Positions 21,002 through 43,637 of a stretch of DNA of 64,000 bases are shown piece by piece. The notes under the pieces are model-generated. The model saw only the letters and a list, made by a program, of their open reading frames with translations. It searched no databases and had not been told where the DNA came from. The translations under genes were made by a program, and so were the position numbers. The stretch lies in the IMG/VR virus record IMGVR_UViG_3300036945_000847, positions 5,486-69,485 of that record, one strand, 5' to 3'. Source of the DNA: a virus. Every line of letters starts with the position of its first letter. The stretch's first letter is position 1.

Positions 21002-21023
21002 ATATTACAAATTTAGTTTATTT

Positions 21024-24000
21024 TTATTGATTATACAAACGAGCCATTGTCCTAAACTTGACAATGAAGTTAATCAGTTTCTGTTTTGCAGAACTTGACT
21101 CAAGAGAAATTTTTACTTTCAACCATTTACCCCACAGTCGTGATGTATCTCCATTATTCAAACCGCTGATGGTAGAATCGTTTTTGATTGGGCTATACCA
21201 CAAATCCTCTCTCTTTTCGAACTCGGTTTCATCCAAATAAGAAATTTGAGTAGGTGTGGTCAAGTATACTTCAAAAGGTTGTCTATCCGTTACAAATTGT
21301 AACGCTTCGAAGTTCTTACTGACGTTTGGTTCATAGTTCATCACCGCTGTTATAGTGGCGGGGTAGTATGTTCCATAGTAAGTGGATTCTGAGCCCCTAT
21401 CATGAAGGTATAAAGTTTTTGTCAAACCAACCGTAGGATTAGGAGAAAAGAAAGTGTTTTTGTAACGCAAGTAGATATTTGGGTAGTAAGAATGAAAACA
21501 GATAAATCCATTTTTCAATTCATCATACACCAGAGTAAACTGTTTATTTGTTACTCCTTCTGTGTACTTGAATGTAAAAATAGCCTCACCATACTTATCA
21601 TTCCACACACCATTGATTCCTTTTCCGGTCAGTGGGTATTTATCATTGAGTCCAAACTTACCATTGTTTGTTAAATAACTTATCAATCCCTTATCGCTAA
21701 TTACTCTTGTACCATCTTGACCGAAACGAACAACTTTTTGACTCTGATCGTTATACCAATAGAAAGTATCTTTACCTGTTGTGGTTTTTCCTTTAACGTG
21801 GGCCCACTTGTTAAATATTCCAATTGCTGTCAACTCTTGACCTGGAGCACCCAAGATTGAGCCACTACCTACAACAACATCTGATCCTTCTTGAGAACCC
21901 AATAGAGATGCATCTCTGAAGTATTGTCTCTGTACACTAAATGGTTGCCAAGTATAAAAAGAATTGTTTATAATATCGTGATGCACAATTGGTCCAAATG
22001 TCAAATCTAAATCTACAAAATCCAAAGGTTTGAATGTTCTGTAGTTATCTTTCTGAGACCCAATCACTTTCTTAGCAGACCATGTTACACGTGAAGGTAA
22101 AGAACCATCGTATTTAACATTTGAATTATAGTTGGTTTCGATAATCGTATCATCTTTGTAATTATACGAACGACTATAGTTATTTTGATTACTTACTTCG
22201 GGCCATTGCTCCAACCAATAAAATAGTCCACTACCTATCGAACCTTCTGGAAGCGCAGTAAGTACGGGACTTCCTAAATAATCAACCCAATAATTACCAG
22301 TGGAGTTTTTATCTAAATATTGAGGGAACACATAACCTGGACCACTGAAGGAATCATCATGATCCAAGATATTGAACATCTGATAATTACCACTGTTCTG
22401 ACTATAGAAAGAAATACCATAACCCATACCCCAAAGCAAATTATTGTGAGGCATACGATGAATTGCCATGTGACTCTTCTGTATGAATGTGTCTCCACCA
22501 TAAACCGAAATGTTGTTTATTACTCCGCTTTGGCCGGGGGTCAAAAGATAATAATGGCCGGTACTTTCATAGAAACTCAATTCTTTGTTGGCGGGGTATT
22601 TTTTATTACCTCCTAAATCTCTAAAGATTTGTCCATACCACATCCCATTATCTGTTAATCCCGTATTGGTATGTGCTTTAGAACTAATTTTGAATACTTC
22701 GCTTGATGCAAGATTCGAATAAAGAGTTTGCCACGCATACGCTGCCGAAACAGTCTTCGTATTCAAAGAAGTGTTAGAACCAGTTTCTAAATGAGTATGG
22801 TGAGTAGCAAGAAAATCTGTGTAATTTTGTGTAGTAGCACCGAAGTACCCTCCATAATCTTGATACGAACTATTATTACTTCCGTTTGCGTGTCTTTGGT
22901 TTGCTCTAGAATGCCCAGAAAAAATAGCGTGCTCATATGGAGCAGCTGCCAATCTTACTTTATCGGTGCTTGCATTAAACTGATAATCAGCATTGTTAAA
23001 ATAAAAATCAGGACTATAGAAGAAGAGATAATCGGAATAGTCAGTTGCACCAGTACCTCCACAAACTGATACGAGCGAACTAGTACTACTAGTACCAATA
23101 GCTAAATTCTGAGCGGTTCCAAAAATGTAACCTGCATTATTTCTCATTAGCGGATTAGCCACACCAAGCGTTGTTCCGTTTTGAATTCCTAAGAAGGGAA
23201 CAATTGGAAAGGTAGTAGTAAATCGTCCATCTGAATGTTCAACACCAGCATAAAATATACCAGTCGCTAAAACCTCAGGAATCCTTTTACTTCTAACTAT
23301 TCTGAACCCGCTAATTAAATCACGAATTCTTTTTCCGCCAACAACAGCATTCAAATTGATATTGTTGAAATTGACATGATAATATTTGACTCTATTGTTG
23401 GATGTATCTTGCAAATTGATATCCACACCACTTACCGAAGCATCTCTTCTATTGCCGATTACATTCGTTGCAGAGCCATCAATTCTTATATCATCAATCC
23501 AATAAGGTAAACTCCACTTGTTATATTCTTTCCACTGTACTTGAATACCAAAACGATAGGTATCATTATACATATAGGAAGTGTAATCAAATGTGTTATT
23601 AGGAACTAAATACTCTCCGTACTTATGGTCTGTAAAACTATTTACCAAGTTTTGATTTTGCTCAAATGATTTACCGACACCTTCGATGTAACCTTGTTCT
23701 ATACTATGACGAATGGTCTGAGCCCAATTGGCCAAATTCAAATCTACACTCTCTGTTAAATTACTAAGTGTAATTCTATTATCAAAAACTTTTAAACTCT
23801 GAGATGTCAAATACTTTGAGGTAATTGCGACTAACTCATTGTTACTCAATATAATATTTTCTTGTCCTAGATTCGTATGTTCTACATCGATACTAGTTTG
23901 ATTTGAGGCAAGTTTGAATCTTTGAACAATTACCGCACTAAACGCAGCATCTTTATATTCAATCGCAACAAGTTCGAAATAAGTATATAAATCTGGAGTA

Positions 24001-28000: not shown

Positions 28001-28038
28001 AACTTTTTACAAATATAAATTATTTTACTACCTAAAAC

Positions 28039-28069
28039 AAAAAAAGAGGGAGATTTTATTCCCCCTCTT
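28039..28069 (-). terminator. intrinsic terminator after capsid operon
   Basis: AAGAGGGAG..CCCCCTCTT stem plus poly-U on the minus strand. Confidence 0.7.
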
Positions 28070-30225: not shown

Positions 30226-31143
30226 TCAGCCAGGGAACATAGCTGCAAAAGCCTCTTGTGCGGCCTCAAGTCCAGAACCAACCGAACGTCCACCGCCTGT
30301 CATGTTTTTACTAGGGTTACTAACTTCTTTAATAACCTGTTCTTTACCTTCGTTGCGAGCTTTCGTAATGTTGGCTTTTACTAAGTCTTTTCCGTATTTC
30401 ATCCATAGAGATACAGAATAAACCTTTTCGATGTCGAACGATCCGTCTTCCTTTTGGAGAGTAAATTCTTCGTTAATGAATTTTTTCAAATCCTTAGACA
30501 TTTCGTCTGTAATTTTTAGTCCATAAACTTCTTTACCTACAACTTCCTTAGAAAAACTTTCCAATTCAACTTCGTATTTTTTAGCAATAGCTTCTTGAAC
30601 TTCAGTAGTTTGTTTATTATTTGAGGTCAACTGTTTCAGTTTGTCCGCATTTTTATTATCAAACTTCTGTTTAAAGTTCTCAGCCCATTGTTTCTTTTGA
30701 AAAATAGACGCAGTGTCATATTCGTAAGCTGCTTGTTCGAGTTCTTCATCGCTAAGATTCATAAACTCTTTCAAACCTTCTTTTACGATTTTCTCCTCTG
30801 TCCATTGCGAATGGTCTTCGATTTGATATTCCTTTACAAAATCAGCAAGAGTTTTACCGCTCTTTTTGTATTCTGAAAGTAATTTCAAATCATCGTCCAA
30901 TTCATATGTTGGCTTATCTTCTACAGGCTTAACTTCAGTATTTGCAACAGGTTTTTCATCTTCATCCCACCATTCTTTTGTTTGAGTTACAGCATCTGTA
31001 ATTTGATCATTAACTTCTGTCTCGGGAACTATTGGTTCAGCGGTTGTTTGTTCTTCCGCTTGTACTTCTACCGTTTCGGTAGCATTTGGAATCTGCTGGC
31101 CTCTCAGCTCATCAGCAATCTGACTCAAGAAATCTTCTGACAT
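30226..31143 (-). CDS. scaffolding-like protein
   Basis: Acidic, Glu/Lys-rich coiled coil between portal and MCP. Confidence 0.65.
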   Translation of the reverse strand: MSEDFLSQIADELRGQQIPNATETVEVQAEEQTTAEPIVPETEVNDQITDAVTQTKEWWDEDEKPVANTEVKPVEDKPTYELDDDLKLLSEYKKSGKTLADFVKEYQIEDHSQWTEEKIVKEGLKEFMNLSDEELEQAAYEYDTASIFQKKQWAENFKQKFDNKNADKLKQLTSNNKQTTEVQEAIAKKYEVELESFSKEVVGKEVYGLKITDEMSKDLKKFINEEFTLQKEDGSFDIEKVYSVSLWMKYGKDLVKANITKARNEGKEQVIKEVSNPSKNMTGGGRSVGSGLEAAQEAFAAMFPG

Positions 31144-31186
31144 ATTCTAACAAATTTAGTTTATTTTTACTATTATTACAAATTTT

Positions 31187-33406
31187 TTATTGTTGAGGCA
31201 TCTGTTCTTCACCACCGCCCATGATTTGTTGCATCAAGTCTGCTGGCATTTCTTCTCCATTTGCAGTTGATTTATCAATCATAGTAGAAGCCATCTTACC
31301 TTGAACATCCAATTCTTTTCTGTAATTAGAACCTTCTTCTTTCATTCCTGCTACTTGCTGTTGCTGTGCCATCTGTTGTTCTTGCTGTGCCTGTTGCATC
31401 ATCTGCATCATTGCTTGTTGTTTTTCAGCATCTCTCTTCTTCTTATTCAAAGAGTATTCCAATTCGCTTACCAACTCGGTATACGTCTTGGCTCTTTCAA
31501 TTCGCAAGTAATCCAACATATCAATCATTTGGTTCTGCATAGATGCTTGAGCCAAACTCAACAAACGTTCTCTAGCTGCATCATCAATAAAGTCTTTAAC
31601 TTTGATATAAACGCCCAACTCTTCGAATTGGAAATCTTTAACAATCTTCAACCATTGTTTGCCCCGAGACCCAATCACTGGAATTTCTTCTTCTGATTCA
31701 GCCATCAATGAAACTTTAAATTGATTCAAAGCAAAGGCCAATTCTTTTTGGATGAATTGAATGAATCCTTGGTAAAGATAAGTAGTTCCCAAGTTAGATT
31801 GAGCGATGGTACCGGCTTGTGTTTTAGCACCGACATAACCGCTCTGTTGTCCCAAAGCAATTTTAGGAACAGATACGATTTCTTCCATCAATCTTTCTTC
31901 TTCTTGGCGCAAGTTGATTAGCAAATTCACATTGGGATCAAGCGTCATGTCTACAACTTCGACCATCTTGGCTTCTTGACCAGATACAAAATCTTCTCCG
32001 GTTGCTGAACCATCAGTAATATGAATACCCATTCTTTCGAAATCAGAGATTACATCCTTAGCCGTAGAAGAACCCAACTTCTGTTTGTTAATCAGATATA
32101 CTTTACCCTTACTACGAGTCATCATTTTGGTAATCTCGTTGGTAATGTAATCGATACGATCTTGGTGTTGGTGGAGACGTGCCACTACAGAACGATTCTC
32201 ACCCATAACCATATTCGGAATAAATACTTTTAATGGTAATTCCACATCGCCAGGGTTGTCGTGCTTTCTCACTTGGTTTGTTACCTCCTCAGCATCAACA
32301 ATATACTTATTACCGATTAGAGTTCCTTTGTAAATTGTTTTGGTCCAATACTGACCCTTCCTACCATTTCTAATTTTACTGTAGTGAGTATTACCAAATT
32401 TATCTCCAGACTTCTCATAACCCATATCCTTCATACCAACCCAATAGCCAGTAACACACGCCAAGGTTGGCAAATTGTTTACGTTGAATGCCCAGTTGGT
32501 TGCATAAGGGTGAGTAGTCAAATCGAGCAACTGATATAAGTTGTTCATATTGATTTGCTTGATTTCTTCAATCTCTTCAATAGTGAGTGAGTCTTGATAA
32601 CGTTCGATTATATCAGTTACATTCAACCAATCAATTTTACCTACAAAACGGGCCTCAGAATTGAAATCGTCATCTTTCGCCCTATCAACAATAAGATTAT
32701 GAGGTAGCACAACATCAAAATACTGCTTACCATTTTCTATTCTATTTTCTATTCCTACGTATCCACCTAGCAAGGTATACAAAAAGGCTTGCTTGAATTT
32801 CTCCATGTATGAATTACGATGTAGAATATCCTCACACATTGTCATAGCAATGATTTCAGAATATTCTTTGTAATCGTATTCCATGTAACGATAAATGTCT
32901 TCTGGAACTTCAAACCCTTGTTGGGCATTACCCATGGGATTATATTCAATTCCAAATTGCGCCATCCTCTCAAATAACTCGGGCATATCAAATTTCAATA
33001 GCGCCTGATCGAGCAATTTGGTTTTTTTGTTGATGGTCGCCTTACTCTGAGATTTAACACTTGGTTCAACGTTCTCAATCATCTTGATTGCGTTACCAAC
33101 CATGTAGTCAACTAAGGAGGTTATTTTTTGACCATTGATCCAAACTGTTGGCAAATCACAACCGCTTTGGTCTTGGGTTGTGTAGTAATAATCTTTGTTG
33201 TATTGTCTCCCTAGATAGTAGGTAAACATTCTCACCACTTCATCAATAGGATTTTCTAAATCTTCTTGTTTTCTAATTCTTGAAATGCGGTCGTGTCTCT
33301 TATTGAAATGAGACATGATAAATTTTAGATTCTCCTTATACCAAATTTTGTTTTTTTCACTTTCTGATAAAAACTGCTTTGGTTGATTAGTTATAGTGAA
33401 TGCCAT
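31187..33406 (-). CDS. portal protein
   Basis: 739 aa; N-terminal PKQFLSESEK...W, SVVARL...Q, GQ....G.KT, Gln/Met-rich C-terminal barrel typical of crAss/P22-like portals. Confidence 0.85.
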   Translation of the reverse strand: MAFTITNQPKQFLSESEKNKIWYKENLKFIMSHFNKRHDRISRIRKQEDLENPIDEVVRMFTYYLGRQYNKDYYYTTQDQSGCDLPTVWINGQKITSLVDYMVGNAIKMIENVEPSVKSQSKATINKKTKLLDQALLKFDMPELFERMAQFGIEYNPMGNAQQGFEVPEDIYRYMEYDYKEYSEIIAMTMCEDILHRNSYMEKFKQAFLYTLLGGYVGIENRIENGKQYFDVVLPHNLIVDRAKDDDFNSEARFVGKIDWLNVTDIIERYQDSLTIEEIEEIKQINMNNLYQLLDLTTHPYATNWAFNVNNLPTLACVTGYWVGMKDMGYEKSGDKFGNTHYSKIRNGRKGQYWTKTIYKGTLIGNKYIVDAEEVTNQVRKHDNPGDVELPLKVFIPNMVMGENRSVVARLHQHQDRIDYITNEITKMMTRSKGKVYLINKQKLGSSTAKDVISDFERMGIHITDGSATGEDFVSGQEAKMVEVVDMTLDPNVNLLINLRQEEERLMEEIVSVPKIALGQQSGYVGAKTQAGTIAQSNLGTTYLYQGFIQFIQKELAFALNQFKVSLMAESEEEIPVIGSRGKQWLKIVKDFQFEELGVYIKVKDFIDDAARERLLSLAQASMQNQMIDMLDYLRIERAKTYTELVSELEYSLNKKKRDAEKQQAMMQMMQQAQQEQQMAQQQQVAGMKEEGSNYRKELDVQGKMASTMIDKSTANGEEMPADLMQQIMGGGEEQMPQQ

Positions 33407-36849: not shown

Positions 36850-36881
36850 TTTGCATAAGTAAACCTTTTAATATATCTTTG
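36850..36881 (+). promoter_or_regulatory. Bacteroidota sigma-A promoter of the HNH gene
   Basis: TTTG (36850-53), 20 nt, TATCTTTG (36874-81), then ATG 4 nt later. Confidence 0.7.
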
Positions 36882-39259: not shown

Positions 39260-39291
39260 TTTGTATTAATTGGTATTTCTAGTTATATTTG
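39260..39291 (+). promoter_or_regulatory. sigma-A promoter of tmRNA / tRNA-like operon
   Basis: TTTG (39260-63), 20 nt, TATATTTG (39284-91). Confidence 0.7.
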
Positions 39292-39312: not shown

Positions 39313-39658
39313 GGGGAAGAAATGGAATCGACAGGATTGATTGGGTTCGATGTTCACGCAGAGAGATGGTACTGTTCTCTTTAATCACGTATCAAAAAAT
39401 TTAAACGGCAACGTAGAATTATCACCAATGGCTTTTGAAGATGCAATGTCTTTCGTTTCTAACGAATACAAAGTAGCAGCTTAAGCTATGGGGAGTCATC
39501 CCTGGGAACAGAAAATGGCAAAAGACGTTTTGCTAGTTATGTCAAAACTAGATGGTGGAATTGAAATACGGTGCAGAGTTTACTCAGTACTAAGCGTGTA
39601 AATAAAGACATTGGATTGCGACTTTCTCTGGACGGGAGTTCGATACTCCCCTTCTCCA
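39313..39658 (+). ncRNA. ssrA: tmRNA
   Basis: 5' GGGGAAG..GGAATCGAC; 3' GACGGGAGTTCGATACTCCCCTTCTCCA; acceptor stem with G3-U70; tag ORF 39407-39484 ending YKVAA-stop. Confidence 0.9.
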
Positions 39659-39664
39659 CAACAT

Positions 39665-39786
39665 AGTCAGGTGGCGAAATGAAGGTAACGCAATGTGATG
39701 CTGCTATCCGTAAGCAAAAACGGTGAAAGGATTTAGCAAATCACGCTAAGAAACACATTTTACAGGTTCGAATCCTGTCCTGACTA
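39665..39786 (+). ncRNA. tRNA-like RNA 1 (122 nt; anticodon arm replaced by a ~70-nt branched structure)
   Basis: Acceptor AGTCAGG/CCTGACT-A, D arm GCG..GGTAA-CGC, T arm ACAGG-TTCGAAT-CCTGT. Confidence 0.75.
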
Positions 39787-39848
39787 CGAAAGCCAAGAGC
39801 CTCTCGAAGTAAGCACACTGGTTGACGGCTCGGAAAGACGAGCAATAT

Positions 39849-40003
39849 AGTAAGATGGCGGAAAGATTACGGTGCCGGGATAAAAACTGGGACCTTGATA
39901 ATCGTGGTAGACGCTAGTGTGGAAATTGGAATTGCGGTGTGGAAGCCGTAGTTCCGCCAAGAAAGCTACATGACCATTATGGGTTCGAGTCCCATTCTAA
40001 CTA
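39849..40003 (+). ncRNA. tRNA-like RNA 2 (155 nt; hairpin inserted in D loop plus extended anticodon arm)
   Basis: Acceptor AGTAAGA/TCTAACT-A (one mismatch), GCG..GTGGTAGA-CGC, T arm ATGGG-TTCGAGT-CCCAT. Confidence 0.7.
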
Positions 40004-40008
40004 CAAAT

Positions 40009-40081
40009 AGTCAGGTGGCGCAATGGTGACGTTACGGAATCGCTCTCCGTGTTGATGTAGGTTCGAATCCTACCCTGACTA
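40009..40081 (+). tRNA. canonical-size tRNA-like RNA 3; nominal anticodon CGC (Ala) but atypical, identity undetermined
   Basis: 73-nt cloverleaf: AGTCAGG/CCTGACT, ACGGA-ATCGCTC-TCCGT, GTAGG-TTCGAAT-CCTAC; A32, U37, no G3-U70. Confidence 0.65.
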
Positions 40082-40087
40082 CAAAAT

Positions 40088-40195
40088 AACAGAGTGGCGG
40101 AATTGGTAACGCACATACAACGAGAGTTCTGCAAACTCGCCCGTAAAGTAAGTTGTATGGTGGTATAAATACAGGTTCGAGTCCTGTCTCTGTTA
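40088..40195 (+). ncRNA. tRNA-like RNA 4 (108 nt; extended anticodon arm)
   Basis: Acceptor AACAGAG/CTCTGTT-A, GCG-GAATTGGTAA-CGC, CATACAAC/GTTGTATG stem, ACAGG-TTCGAGT-CCTGT. Confidence 0.75.
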
Positions 40196-40196
40196 C

Positions 40197-40303
40197 AACA
40201 ACTGGAGTCATAAACAAAAACACTTGTGGTAATTGGGTAAGTTGCATGACCGTACAGACCTTAGAAGCAACTTGTTGTGTGAGTGACACAAACTCCAGTT
40301 GTT
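40197..40303 (+). ncRNA. rod-shaped structured RNA between tRNA-like elements
   Basis: 12-bp perfect closing stem AACAACTGGAGT/ACTCCAGTTGTT, inner AAGTTGC/GCAACTT. Confidence 0.55.
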
Positions 40304-40411
40304 TAAGCCAAGTGTCGTATATCCGAAGCGGGGTTACCCCAGAGATGGGCCTCCGAAATATGTGAAATTCATAGACTTAGGAACTGAGGGTTCGAATCCC
40401 CCCTTGGCTTA
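40304..40411 (+). ncRNA. tRNA-like RNA 5 (~106 nt; acceptor and T arm around several mini-hairpins)
   Basis: TAAGCCAAG/CTTGGCTTA stem, GAGGG-TTCGAAT-CCCCC T arm. Confidence 0.6.
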
Positions 40412-40416
40412 CAAAT

Positions 40417-40446
40417 AAAAAAGGGCTGCCTTTCAGCAACCCCTTA
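40417..40446. terminator. terminator between convergent ncRNA operon and 40466..40792
   Basis: AAAAAAGGGCTGC..GCAACCCCTT imperfect hairpin. Confidence 0.55.
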
Positions 40447-40465: not shown

Positions 40466-40792
40466 TCAGCTCCAAGGTAGAGGAGTAATCTCCGGTGATG
40501 TAGGAGGATTCTTTTGACTTTCAATTTGTCCGTCAATAGTAGAAGTAATAGAGATAACGCCATTTTCTCCTAATTCAGATTGAATCCAAGAAAGGACTAC
40601 TTCCTCTGTTAAGGAATCAAAAGGAATTACTGTTTGACCTTCTATAAAGGAGAAGGAGATCATAGAACTCATCTCACTAGAGTAAGTGCCATCGTTTCCC
40701 GATACCTTGTAGCCTGCGTTCACTACGAATCCTTGTTCTGGAGTACTCACTGTATAGAGTGAGGTAACTTCCCATTTATATATTGTTTCCAT
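40466..40792 (-). CDS. fibre-associated small protein
   Basis: YKW.V.., IPFDSLTEEVVLSWIQ, C-terminal LPW; pattern seen after fibre genes. Confidence 0.6.
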   Translation of the reverse strand: METIYKWEVTSLYTVSTPEQGFVVNAGYKVSGNDGTYSSEMSSMISFSFIEGQTVIPFDSLTEEVVLSWIQSELGENGVISITSTIDGQIESQKNPPTSPEITPLPWS

Positions 40793-42756: not shown

Positions 42757-43022
42757 AGAACAAAGTTAACGAAAATACGTCAAATGTCAAAATGCGCCTA
42801 CTTTTCATAAGATGCGCCCATTATTCTCAGAACAACTAAAGTTCAACTAAAGTACAACTGATAAATGCCAGTAAATAGAAAAAGTGGCAAATATTTGTGG
42901 AACAAGCTGCTGCATAATTATAGTTTTCTTTAGTTGGTCTGCCAAAATGCCGTGTTGAGACCCAAAACACTAGAGTGCATGGCAAAAATGGAAAAATTCA
43001 TGCAACAACTGCTGCACGAATG

Positions 43023-43604: not shown

Positions 43605-43637
43605 TTTGGTGGTCTGAAAACTATCCACTTATCTTTG
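43605..43637 (+). promoter_or_regulatory. early promoter
   Basis: TTTG (43605-08), 21 nt, TATCTTTG (43630-37). Confidence 0.7.

Follow-up and report, generated by a model that had tools for sequence, protein, structure and literature searches.

Array of tRNA-framed RNA genes with exchangeable inserts behind the tmRNA of a crAss-like phage

The DNA stretch analysed here (the window, 64,000 nt) comprises bases 5486–69485 of the 69,485-bp virus record IMGVR_UViG_3300036945_000847, which carries direct terminal repeats and is rated 100% complete. Directly after the transfer-messenger RNA (tmRNA) gene of this phage, five tRNA-shaped genes on the plus strand, E1 to E5, span positions 39665–40410. 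Four are oversized (E1, 122 nt; E2, 155 nt; E4, 108 nt; E5, ~105 nt), and E3 is an atypical tRNA of 73 nt. An initial annotation had described them as an array in which the acceptor and T arms of a tRNA are retained and the anticodon arm is replaced by large, unrelated structures. All five were recovered in place, with acceptor and T arms and with the lengths given there, apart from E5, which had been put at ~106 nt. All five occurrences of the T-loop word GGTTCGARTCC in the 64-kb window lie on the plus strand within the cluster, where 100 shuffles of the window predict 0.02. These genes are best read as tRNA-framed RNAs with exchangeable payloads.

E1 (39665–39786) pairs AGTCAGG with CCTGACT in its acceptor stem and carries A73, a D arm of the form GCG..GG..CGC and the T arm ACAGG-UUCGAAU-CCUGU, with a ~70-nt insert replacing the anticodon arm. 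In E2 (39849–40003), a ~40-nt hairpin sits within the D loop, and a long hairpin domain (10 bp) occupies the place where the anticodon arm is expected. E3 (40009–40081) forms a cloverleaf on the AGTCAGG frame, and its 7-nt loop, AUCGCUC, gives the anticodon CGC and U37. The middle of E4 (40088–40195) consists of an 8-bp stem after A26, the dinucleotide GA, an apical hairpin and a conserved single strand; its variable region is the 11-nt GUGGUAUAAAU. E5 (40306–40410, drawable with an 8-bp stem as 40305–40411) combines the acceptor AGCCAAG/CUUGGCU and a T arm with a multi-hairpin middle. The 7-bp acceptor stems proposed for all five elements are complete in E1, E3, E4 and E5 (7/7 pairs each), whereas E2 reaches 6/7, with an A-A mismatch at pair 4; in the relative of E2 at locus L093, the acceptor AGTTAGA/TCTAACT pairs 7/7. 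The T stem pairs 5/5 in E1 to E4 and 4/5 in E5 (A-C mismatch). As had been noticed, a GCG...GG...CG(C/T) D arm is present in four elements, E1 to E4, and E5 has at this place only a 3-bp UCG/CGA hairpin. In unconstrained minimum-energy folds, the acceptor stem and T arm form in E1, E3 and E4, while E2 forms six of the seven acceptor pairs and the T arm, and E5 forms the acceptor and a shortened T arm.

An anticodon arm, defined by a 5-bp stem, a 7-nt loop, U33 and a purine at position 37, is absent from E1, E2, E4 and E5, which cannot decode. E3 departs from this definition only at position 37, which is U rather than a purine. The statement that none of the elements is an ordinary decoding tRNA is therefore upheld for the four oversized members and is weaker for E3, which passes both tRNA detectors and would be set apart only by details, namely U37, the lack of G3-U70 and the leucine-type frame described below. 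Across the cluster, ARAGORN calls the tmRNA and E3 only, and Rfam at the gathering threshold likewise reports the tmRNA and E3 (44.5 bits); the expectation that such tools would return no regular call and no family came true for E1, E2 and E5, came true with ARAGORN and at the Rfam gathering threshold for E4, and failed for E3. At E ≤ 10, E4 is reported as a tRNA with 44.0 bits, the alignment skipping a 47-nt insertion (RF00005 cut-off, 29). E1, E2 and E5 match no Rfam family at gathering score, RF00005 fragments scoring 16.1 and 14 bits against 29, and the tmRNA and permuted tmRNA models (RF00023, RF04321) score 17.5 and 16.4 bits over the elements against a cut-off of 47. The E3 homologue at locus L089 retains the loop UCGCUC, with compensated stem changes, and has G73 in place of the A73 of the window. 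It is pure speculation that E3, if charged by leucyl-tRNA synthetase (LeuRS) and active in decoding, would read an alanine codon as leucine.

Homologues of the elements were found in related phages. E4 is 91.8% identical over 97 nt to a sequence of the uncultured phage MW202828; in a search of 50,697 phage records with blastn, cultured phages gave only T-arm-sized matches. The E4 family comprises 20 distinct aligned sequences, in which 97.3% of the cells hold a standard pair, compared with 29–39% when the 3′ partners are slid by 1–3 columns; the structure was read from one of the 20 sequences, which favours it in this control. Sixteen of the 28 pairs change on both sides (5.2 ± 1.6 in shuffles, with 0/500 reaching the observed number), and these two-sided changes affect 7/7 pairs of the acceptor, 4/8 of the long stem after A26, 3/5 of the apical hairpin and 2/5 of the T stem. 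The E4 insert itself keeps a mean column identity of 87% across phages with five different acceptor stems. The proposal that compensatory changes betray selection on the fold is confirmed by these data: the structure is real and selected. Among the other elements, the E2 homologues at loci L093 and L095 conserve the 3′ two-thirds, with the D-loop hairpin (~40 nt) swapped for other sequence at the same spot, and the E5 homologue at L093 shows five differences over 89 shared positions (~94% identity).

The array belongs to a wider family. A pattern scan of IMG/VR that required a D arm, an oversized middle of 45–75 nt and a T loop returned 66 loci; the acceptor pairs 7/7 in 62 of them, AGTCAGG is exact in 27 and A73 is present in 56. 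Twenty different acceptor-stem sequences occur among the 66, and the E4 payload is found in 23. A set defined by a 3′ acceptor strand with at most one mismatch to CCTGACT, a 5/5 T stem, a 7/7 acceptor and U8 holds 81 unique frame elements of 67–241 nt; 69 of the 81 measure 90 nt or more, and one of the 81 is a true tRNA-Leu(UAA) that passes the filter. Members of what we call the AGTCAGG-frame family have AGTCAGG/CCTGACT or a compensated acceptor, A73, a Leu-type D arm, the T arm ACAGG-UUCGAAU-CCUGU and, as middle, something other than an anticodon arm. The frame is exact in E1 and E3, E4 represents the commonest payload of the family on a compensated acceptor, E2 is a variant of the frame, and E5 shares its acceptor/T half only. 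The same architecture recurs in 49 locus groups of unrelated phage contexts. Annotation pipelines overlook such genes, as ARAGORN makes no call for 71 of the 81 elements.

The 3′ frame word was also found in 18 contigs of 185,579 species genomes, all of them metagenome-assembled genomes (MAGs), with 19 complete elements of 77–196 nt. There it always ends an oversized or odd element and never an ordinary tRNA, and on this ground an origin as an attachment site or a copied host tRNA was rejected. Half of the 18 MAG labels are non-Bacteroidota; we claim no host range from these labels because short contigs may be mis-binned phage DNA. Very small forms exist as well. A ~60-nt tRNA-like element with an acceptor, a 4-bp D arm, a T arm and no anticodon arm at all lies at L001:640–700 and, on the minus strand, at L006 ~2790–2730, and it adjoins the E4 homologue in two phages (MW202828 and L006). 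A 72-nt mini element on the AGTCAGG frame (L095:1119–1190), in which ARAGORN reads a four-base anticodon (gaaa), has a near-identical middle in contigs of a marine RNA library.

The family data also bear on a reading in which the elements are functionless, as decaying tRNA-Leu pseudogenes or debris of recombination. The E1 insert is unique to the source genome, mismatches interrupt the stems of E2 (A-A) and E5 (A-C), and array content varies among close relatives, all of which would suit decay. However, the array does not behave like decaying sequence, since E4 has 20 homologues with covariation and E2, E3 and E5 have relatives. Acceptors that pair 7/7 in 62 of 66 loci despite 20 stem sequences, the strength of the covariation, the retained set of leucine tertiary nucleotides and the recurrence of one architecture in 49 locus groups likewise make this reading very improbable.

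The constant part of these genes resembles a leucine tRNA. When the D arm was compared with those of ARAGORN-called tRNAs in the loci (227 tRNAs, those starting with AGTCAGG or AGTTAGG set aside), tRNA-Leu was closest, supplying the best two matches, six of the top ten and the highest mean. An 18-nt D-arm word, allowing at most two mismatches, gave six matches in three Bacteroidota MAGs; all six lie in cellular tRNA-Leu genes, and one is exact. These six genes have A73, a C74-A-rich trailer and a T arm very similar to those of the frame; their acceptor stems differ. Among the 81 elements, A73 is present in 75, A14A15 in 73, the D-loop GG in 78 and U48 in 74. E. coli LeuRS is described as needing A73, A15-U48, G18G19 and D/T contacts, with the anticodon and the long variable arm dispensable, and variants of E. 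coli tRNA-Leu from which the anticodon arm and the variable arm are both missing can still be charged (PMC9976931). By these E. coli rules, the frame would keep just what an anticodon-independent synthetase reads, and it is the upper body of a host-type leucine tRNA. The identity nucleotides are present in E1, E3 and E4; the hairpin breaks up the D loop of E2, and in E5 this D arm is missing and position 73 is U. Since leucine identity depends on A73 and the elbow and not on an anticodon, elements of this kind may be leucylated, with E2 and E5 as doubtful candidates.

The inserts, by contrast with the frame, are highly diverse: the 81 frame elements sort into 53 insert clusters with no 10-mer in common. 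A single locus (L036) holds at least seven elements on the AGTCAGG frame, beside a decoding tRNA array. Inserts also differ between phages that are otherwise near-identical at this locus. The tmRNAs of L093 and L095 match that of the window at 346 and 345 of 347 positions, respectively. The slot 3′ of the tmRNA holds the 122-nt E1 in the window, a non-tRNA spacer followed by a 101-nt element in L093, and a 72-nt mini element in L095, which is also without E3, E4, E5 and the rod RNA described below. Two further loci with ~87% identical tmRNAs (L073 and L094) have other elements in the slot, of 104 nt and at least 120 nt. A 541-nt RNA-library contig (X19 record 1) contains the tmRNA, 115 other letters and then the sequence of 39823–39863; this different order after the same tmRNA indicates that it derives from a relative with another cassette. 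Several payloads (L011, L071, L081 and L083) hold T-arm-like hairpins, for example GGTTCGAGTCC or CAGTTCAAATCTG, and such second T-loop motifs could make tertiary contacts.

The contrast between a constant frame and changing inserts could mean that the frame itself is the active part. The elements would then be non-decoding mimics of tRNA-Leu that are charged by or titrate LeuRS, EF-Tu, RNase P or some host factor by which the upper body of a tRNA is sensed or attacked, and the near-neutral insert would merely disable decoding. Several observations fit: conservation is much stronger in the frame (AGTCAGG in 27/66 loci, leucine nucleotides in 73–78 of 81 elements) than in the inserts, no motif beyond chance runs through the 53 insert clusters, inserts are replaced wholesale among near-identical phages, and the short members (67–73 nt, together with the ~60-nt form in MW202828 and L006) are almost free of payload. 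An insert of no consequence would hardly stay 87% conserved across five acceptor stems, as that of E4 does, with covariation in its internal helices (4/8 and 3/5 pairs); nor would a neutral spacer require several different copies per genome, and the E2 and E5 inserts are kept in relatives. We consider an active frame with idle inserts unlikely and favour payloads that matter in their own right.

Alternatively, the elements could be intron-containing tRNA genes whose inserts are excised and whose exons are joined to give decoding tRNAs. This is how oversized, unclassifiable tRNAs of Lak megaphages are read in the account of Devoto et al. 2019 (PMC6784885), and a cut of E1 at 37/38 could give the loop AUGCUGA, with U33 and G37. 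Among the 69 oversized members, however, just one permits a 5-bp stem, U33 and R37 around an intron at the canonical 37/38 site, which is the site that this test covers, and shuffles give a mean of 0.99. The would-be position 33 of E4 is A or G in all 20 sequences, and RtcB ligase is absent from the phage. Self-splicing is unlikely because the inserts share no core. In RNA-library contigs from four runs, most matches cover the conserved T-arm/acceptor words alone, and one contig, which may be DNA, runs unbroken through the E2 insert into the T arm (39905–39992). Most of E1, the rod RNA and E5 had no contig over them, an absence that carries no weight. Taken together, these data render excision of the inserts quite improbable and leave them as parts of the mature RNAs in the preferred reading.

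Two specific roles for the inserts were considered and set aside. Antisense or guide function was sought by BLAST of the E1, E2, E4 and E5 inserts, plus the S1 and rod RNAs described below, on the 69.5-kb genome of the phage itself; beyond the cluster, exact matches extended to no more than 12 nt (E ≥ 0.2), as expected by chance. The suggestion that the elements are decoys for anticodon nucleases found no general support: hairpins with a 5-bp stem, a 7-nt loop, U2 and R6 number 4 in 41 inserts versus 1.9 ± 1.4 after shuffling, and with 4-bp stems the count is 10 versus 5.6 ± 2.3, at most a weak trend.

The flanks of the elements were compared with those of ordinary tRNAs. Of the 81 elements, 60 have U-1 and 78 have C74; 61 have CAA, CTA or CGA as trailer, and none has CCA. 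The ordinary tRNAs of the same loci show U-1 in 118/210 and C74 in 191/210, with CAA and CTA as the commonest trailers. This likeness agrees with a single set of host enzymes maturing both. A U at −1 is well suited to bacterial RNase P, and a trailer without encoded CCA to RNase Z.

The source is a complete 69.5-kb crAss-like phage, probably of Bacteroidota. Its crAss-like nature follows from Pfam matches of window open reading frames (ORFs) to crassvirus muzzle and ring proteins. Among the matches listed for the 73 window ORFs, which cover 25 of 27 Pfam and 25 of 92 PHROG families, genes for crAss-like structural proteins and for replication appear, but no RNA enzyme does. Searches of the phage for TROVE, RtcB and CCA-enzyme domains were negative (for TROVE, no match at E ≤ 1). 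The words TTTG-N18-22-TAnnTTTG, based on TTTG-N-TAnnTTTG, which we take to be the Bacteroidota promoter consensus, occur 11 times in the window, against 2.5 expected and a number reached by 0/100 shuffles, and 7 of the 11 stand just upstream of ORF or RNA starts; this enrichment supports a Bacteroidota host. One such promoter-like site (TTTG-N20-TAnnTTTG, 39260–39291, plus strand) lies 21 nt before the tmRNA and is the only one before the cluster, the word having no match within 39313–40445. Further sites are found, for example, at 21008–21039, 28010–28041, 31151–31182, 36850–36881, 42761–42791 and 43605–43637.

The tmRNA (39313–39659, plus strand; called by ARAGORN and, with 91.9 bits, by Rfam RF00023) is the first of eight RNA-like units separated by gaps of 0–6 nt, in the order tmRNA, E1, S1, E2, E3, E4, rod and E5. 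A GC-rich hairpin of 11 pairs between A and T runs (40420–40445) looks like a terminator on either strand; it was called on the minus strand, and a T run 3′ of it on the plus strand is seen in the sequence. It closes both the RNA unit and the convergent gene at 40466–40792. With a single promoter-like site and a single terminator-like hairpin, the RNA cluster and the tmRNA appear to be co-transcribed as one unit, in agreement with the common promoter assumed in the initial annotation. The phage tmRNA encodes a tag of 25 residues, and the relatives L073, L093, L094 and L095 split into two tag variants; the tmRNAs of the window and L073 agree fully in the first 102 nt and the last 93 nt.

Within the array lie two additional RNAs that are not tRNA-like. 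The S1 spacer RNA (39787–39848, plus strand) ends in the hairpin GCUCG-GAAAGA-CGAGC, 5 nt before E2. This hairpin motif, with the consensus GCU(C)G-GAAAGA-C(G)AGC and the flanks UGAC(A/G) and AA-N-AU, occurs at eight distinct places in 826 kb of loci (window 39828–39843; L093:1523 and 1707; L095:1229; L053:4988; L011:12779 and 13402; L030:3337). Five of these lie 5–6 nt upstream of a recognisable tRNA-framed element, and L011:12779 is a possible sixth. The hairpin may be a processing or 3′-protection signal. It also resembles a sigma-70 promoter (TTGACG-18-TATAGT), but its ‘−10’ overlaps the acceptor stem. The rod RNA (40197–40303, 107 nt, plus strand) is closed by a 12-bp stem, shows no tRNA features and fills the space between E4 and E5; its position in L093 holds unrelated sequence.

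Based on these findings, the best-supported reading, with a probability of roughly 0.62, is that the elements are tRNA-framed RNAs in which a chassis released by host tRNA-processing enzymes carries exchangeable payloads. First, a single transcript would comprise the phage tmRNA and these RNAs. From it, the tRNA-maturation enzymes of the host would free the RNAs by RNase P cleavage at the 5′ end, 3′ trimming and CCA addition, because the 7-bp acceptor on the T arm, the D/T elbow, U-1, A73 and the C74 trailer are kept. The payloads would be unrelated folded RNA domains on a constant chassis. Related phages would swap these domains, plausibly through recombination in the conserved halves of the frame, and the payloads would presumably carry the function. 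The role is most likely the binding or titration of host or rival factors during infection. A tRNA frame that acts as a processing and stabilising chassis for variable payloads had been proposed before this analysis; the comparative data fit the proposal, while processing, stability, CCA addition, charging and role are what we infer.

Several points weigh against this reading. The E1 insert has no homologue in the loci analysed or in GenBank phages. No payload motif is shared, since the top 5-, 6- and 7-mers of 41 representative inserts stay within shuffle maxima; AAGGT, present in 13 of the 41, is just over the 95th percentile of shuffles (12) and under their maximum (14). No protein family occurs within 4 kb in more than 4 of the 49 locus groups, so that neither neighbours nor motifs appear to point to a payload target. 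As to discrete RNAs, the RNA-library data are assembled contigs that may include DNA. Leucylation, whose identity rules come from E. coli and not from Bacteroidota, may fail for several members because the E2 insert moves G18G19, E5 is without the Leu D arm and has U73, and the D loops of E1 and E4 are altered.

More tentatively, the elements could represent a natural modular tRNA-scaffold system, apparently above all of Bacteroidota phages, in which a leucine chassis carries at least 53 fast-exchanging payloads, the frame halves act as recombination arms and the payloads are RNA effectors of host takeover or counter-defence. Effectors of this kind would explain why payloads differ among phages whose tmRNAs are 99% identical. 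From the chassis one would expect cleavage by RNase P, addition of CCA and perhaps leucylation that is independent of the anticodon, and the turnover of payloads predicts a role in host conflict. An old puzzle is turned into a testable one by the recurrence, in many uncultured phages, of a Leu-type frame that carries dozens of unrelated inserts, swapped between near-identical genomes. The array shows that the small stable tRNA-like RNAs known from T4 and T5 are more than peculiarities of two coliphages.

The array is reminiscent of the RNAs of phage T5, and the novelty implied in the initial annotation was overstated, because the T5 and T4 records already carry tRNA-like or small stable RNAs within tRNA clusters. 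In the T5 record (AY543070), RNA1 (30501–30644, 144 nt) and RNA2 (32959–33083, 125 nt) are annotated as ‘tRNA-like stable RNA with unknown functions’ and RNA3 as a ‘putative tRNA-like RNA’. As in the window, oversized tRNA-like RNAs lie there in a phage tRNA/stable-RNA cluster beside non-tRNA stable RNAs, comparable to S1 and the rod, which is like those interspersed in the T5 cluster; the elements of the window have an acceptor and a T arm, and four of the five have an oversized body with no usable anticodon arm. The D arm of T5 RNA1, GCCGGAATTGGTAGACGG, is of the leucine type, and ~80 extra nt separate it from the T arm. The T5 RNAs share no sequence homology with E1 to E5 and do not repeat a single frame in an array; the acceptor of RNA1 appears mismatched, and the host is E. 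coli. The record states that the T5 RNAs are stable in vivo, whereas the stability of the RNAs here is a prediction.

Phage T4 carries rnaC (species 1, 139 nt) and rnaD (species 2, 119 nt), each a ‘small, stable RNA’, at the end of its tRNA cluster (NC_000866: 70908–71171). They too are non-tRNA stable RNAs co-located with phage tRNAs, with a function left unassigned in the record, and rnaC has a terminal T-arm-like hairpin, CCGGG-TTCGAAT-CCCGG, followed by a short 3′ strand. Both RNAs are processed like tRNAs. They differ from the present elements in that no Leu-type D arm is seen, acceptor pairing looks imperfect, and there is no common frame or payload. Another cultured phage with an oversized tRNA-like gene is Bacillus phage 0305phi8-36 (EF583821 / NC_009760), in which ~182566–182591 is annotated as a ‘tRNA-like element detected by tRNAscan-SE: intron-containing ...’. 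The kind is thus already on record in T5 and T4; the shared Leu-type frame, the number of payloads and the turnover of cassettes appear to be new here, and full-text searches turned up no paper on the AGTCAGG-frame family, its payload count or its cassette turnover.

The ‘enigmatic introns’ of Lak phages likewise concern oversized tRNA genes of Bacteroidota phages that tRNA callers do not classify, and their inserts are described as highly conserved between cohorts (PMC6784885). They interrupt typed tRNAs (Tyr GTA and Thr TGT), whereas no anticodon arm can be rebuilt here; this comparison is with the Lak genes as described.

YrlA Y RNAs (RF02553) are non-coding and non-decoding and embed a tRNA-like acceptor/T/D module (PMC4201824). 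By analogy, the elements could be Y-RNA-like adaptors whose payload binds the Ro60/Rsr ring or a similar host ribonucleoprotein, and a TROVE protein does exist in Bacteroides thetaiotaomicron, one of the control genomes. Of all the explanations weighed, this one, suggested in the initial annotation, is the least probable and is unsupported in this phage: a TROVE/Ro60 gene is absent, the match to the YrlA model reaches 17.5 bits where 69 are required and straddles two elements, the topology is opposite, the ends forming an acceptor stem and not a Ro-binding stem, and the payloads have no common motif.

The closest likeness in working, for tRNA-framed RNAs with exchangeable payloads, is to the engineered tRNA scaffold of Ponchon and Dardel, in which the acceptor, T and D arms are kept and the anticodon stem-loop is made the insertion site. 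Such chimeras are reported to be precisely processed, to accumulate in E. coli and to be protected in bacteria with inserts of up to ~250 nt (PMC3753655). The design is the same; the scaffold is man-made, built on human tRNA-Lys3 or E. coli tRNAs, and the resemblance is one of working, not of family membership. The phage arrays would be a natural counterpart to this laboratory tRNA scaffold.

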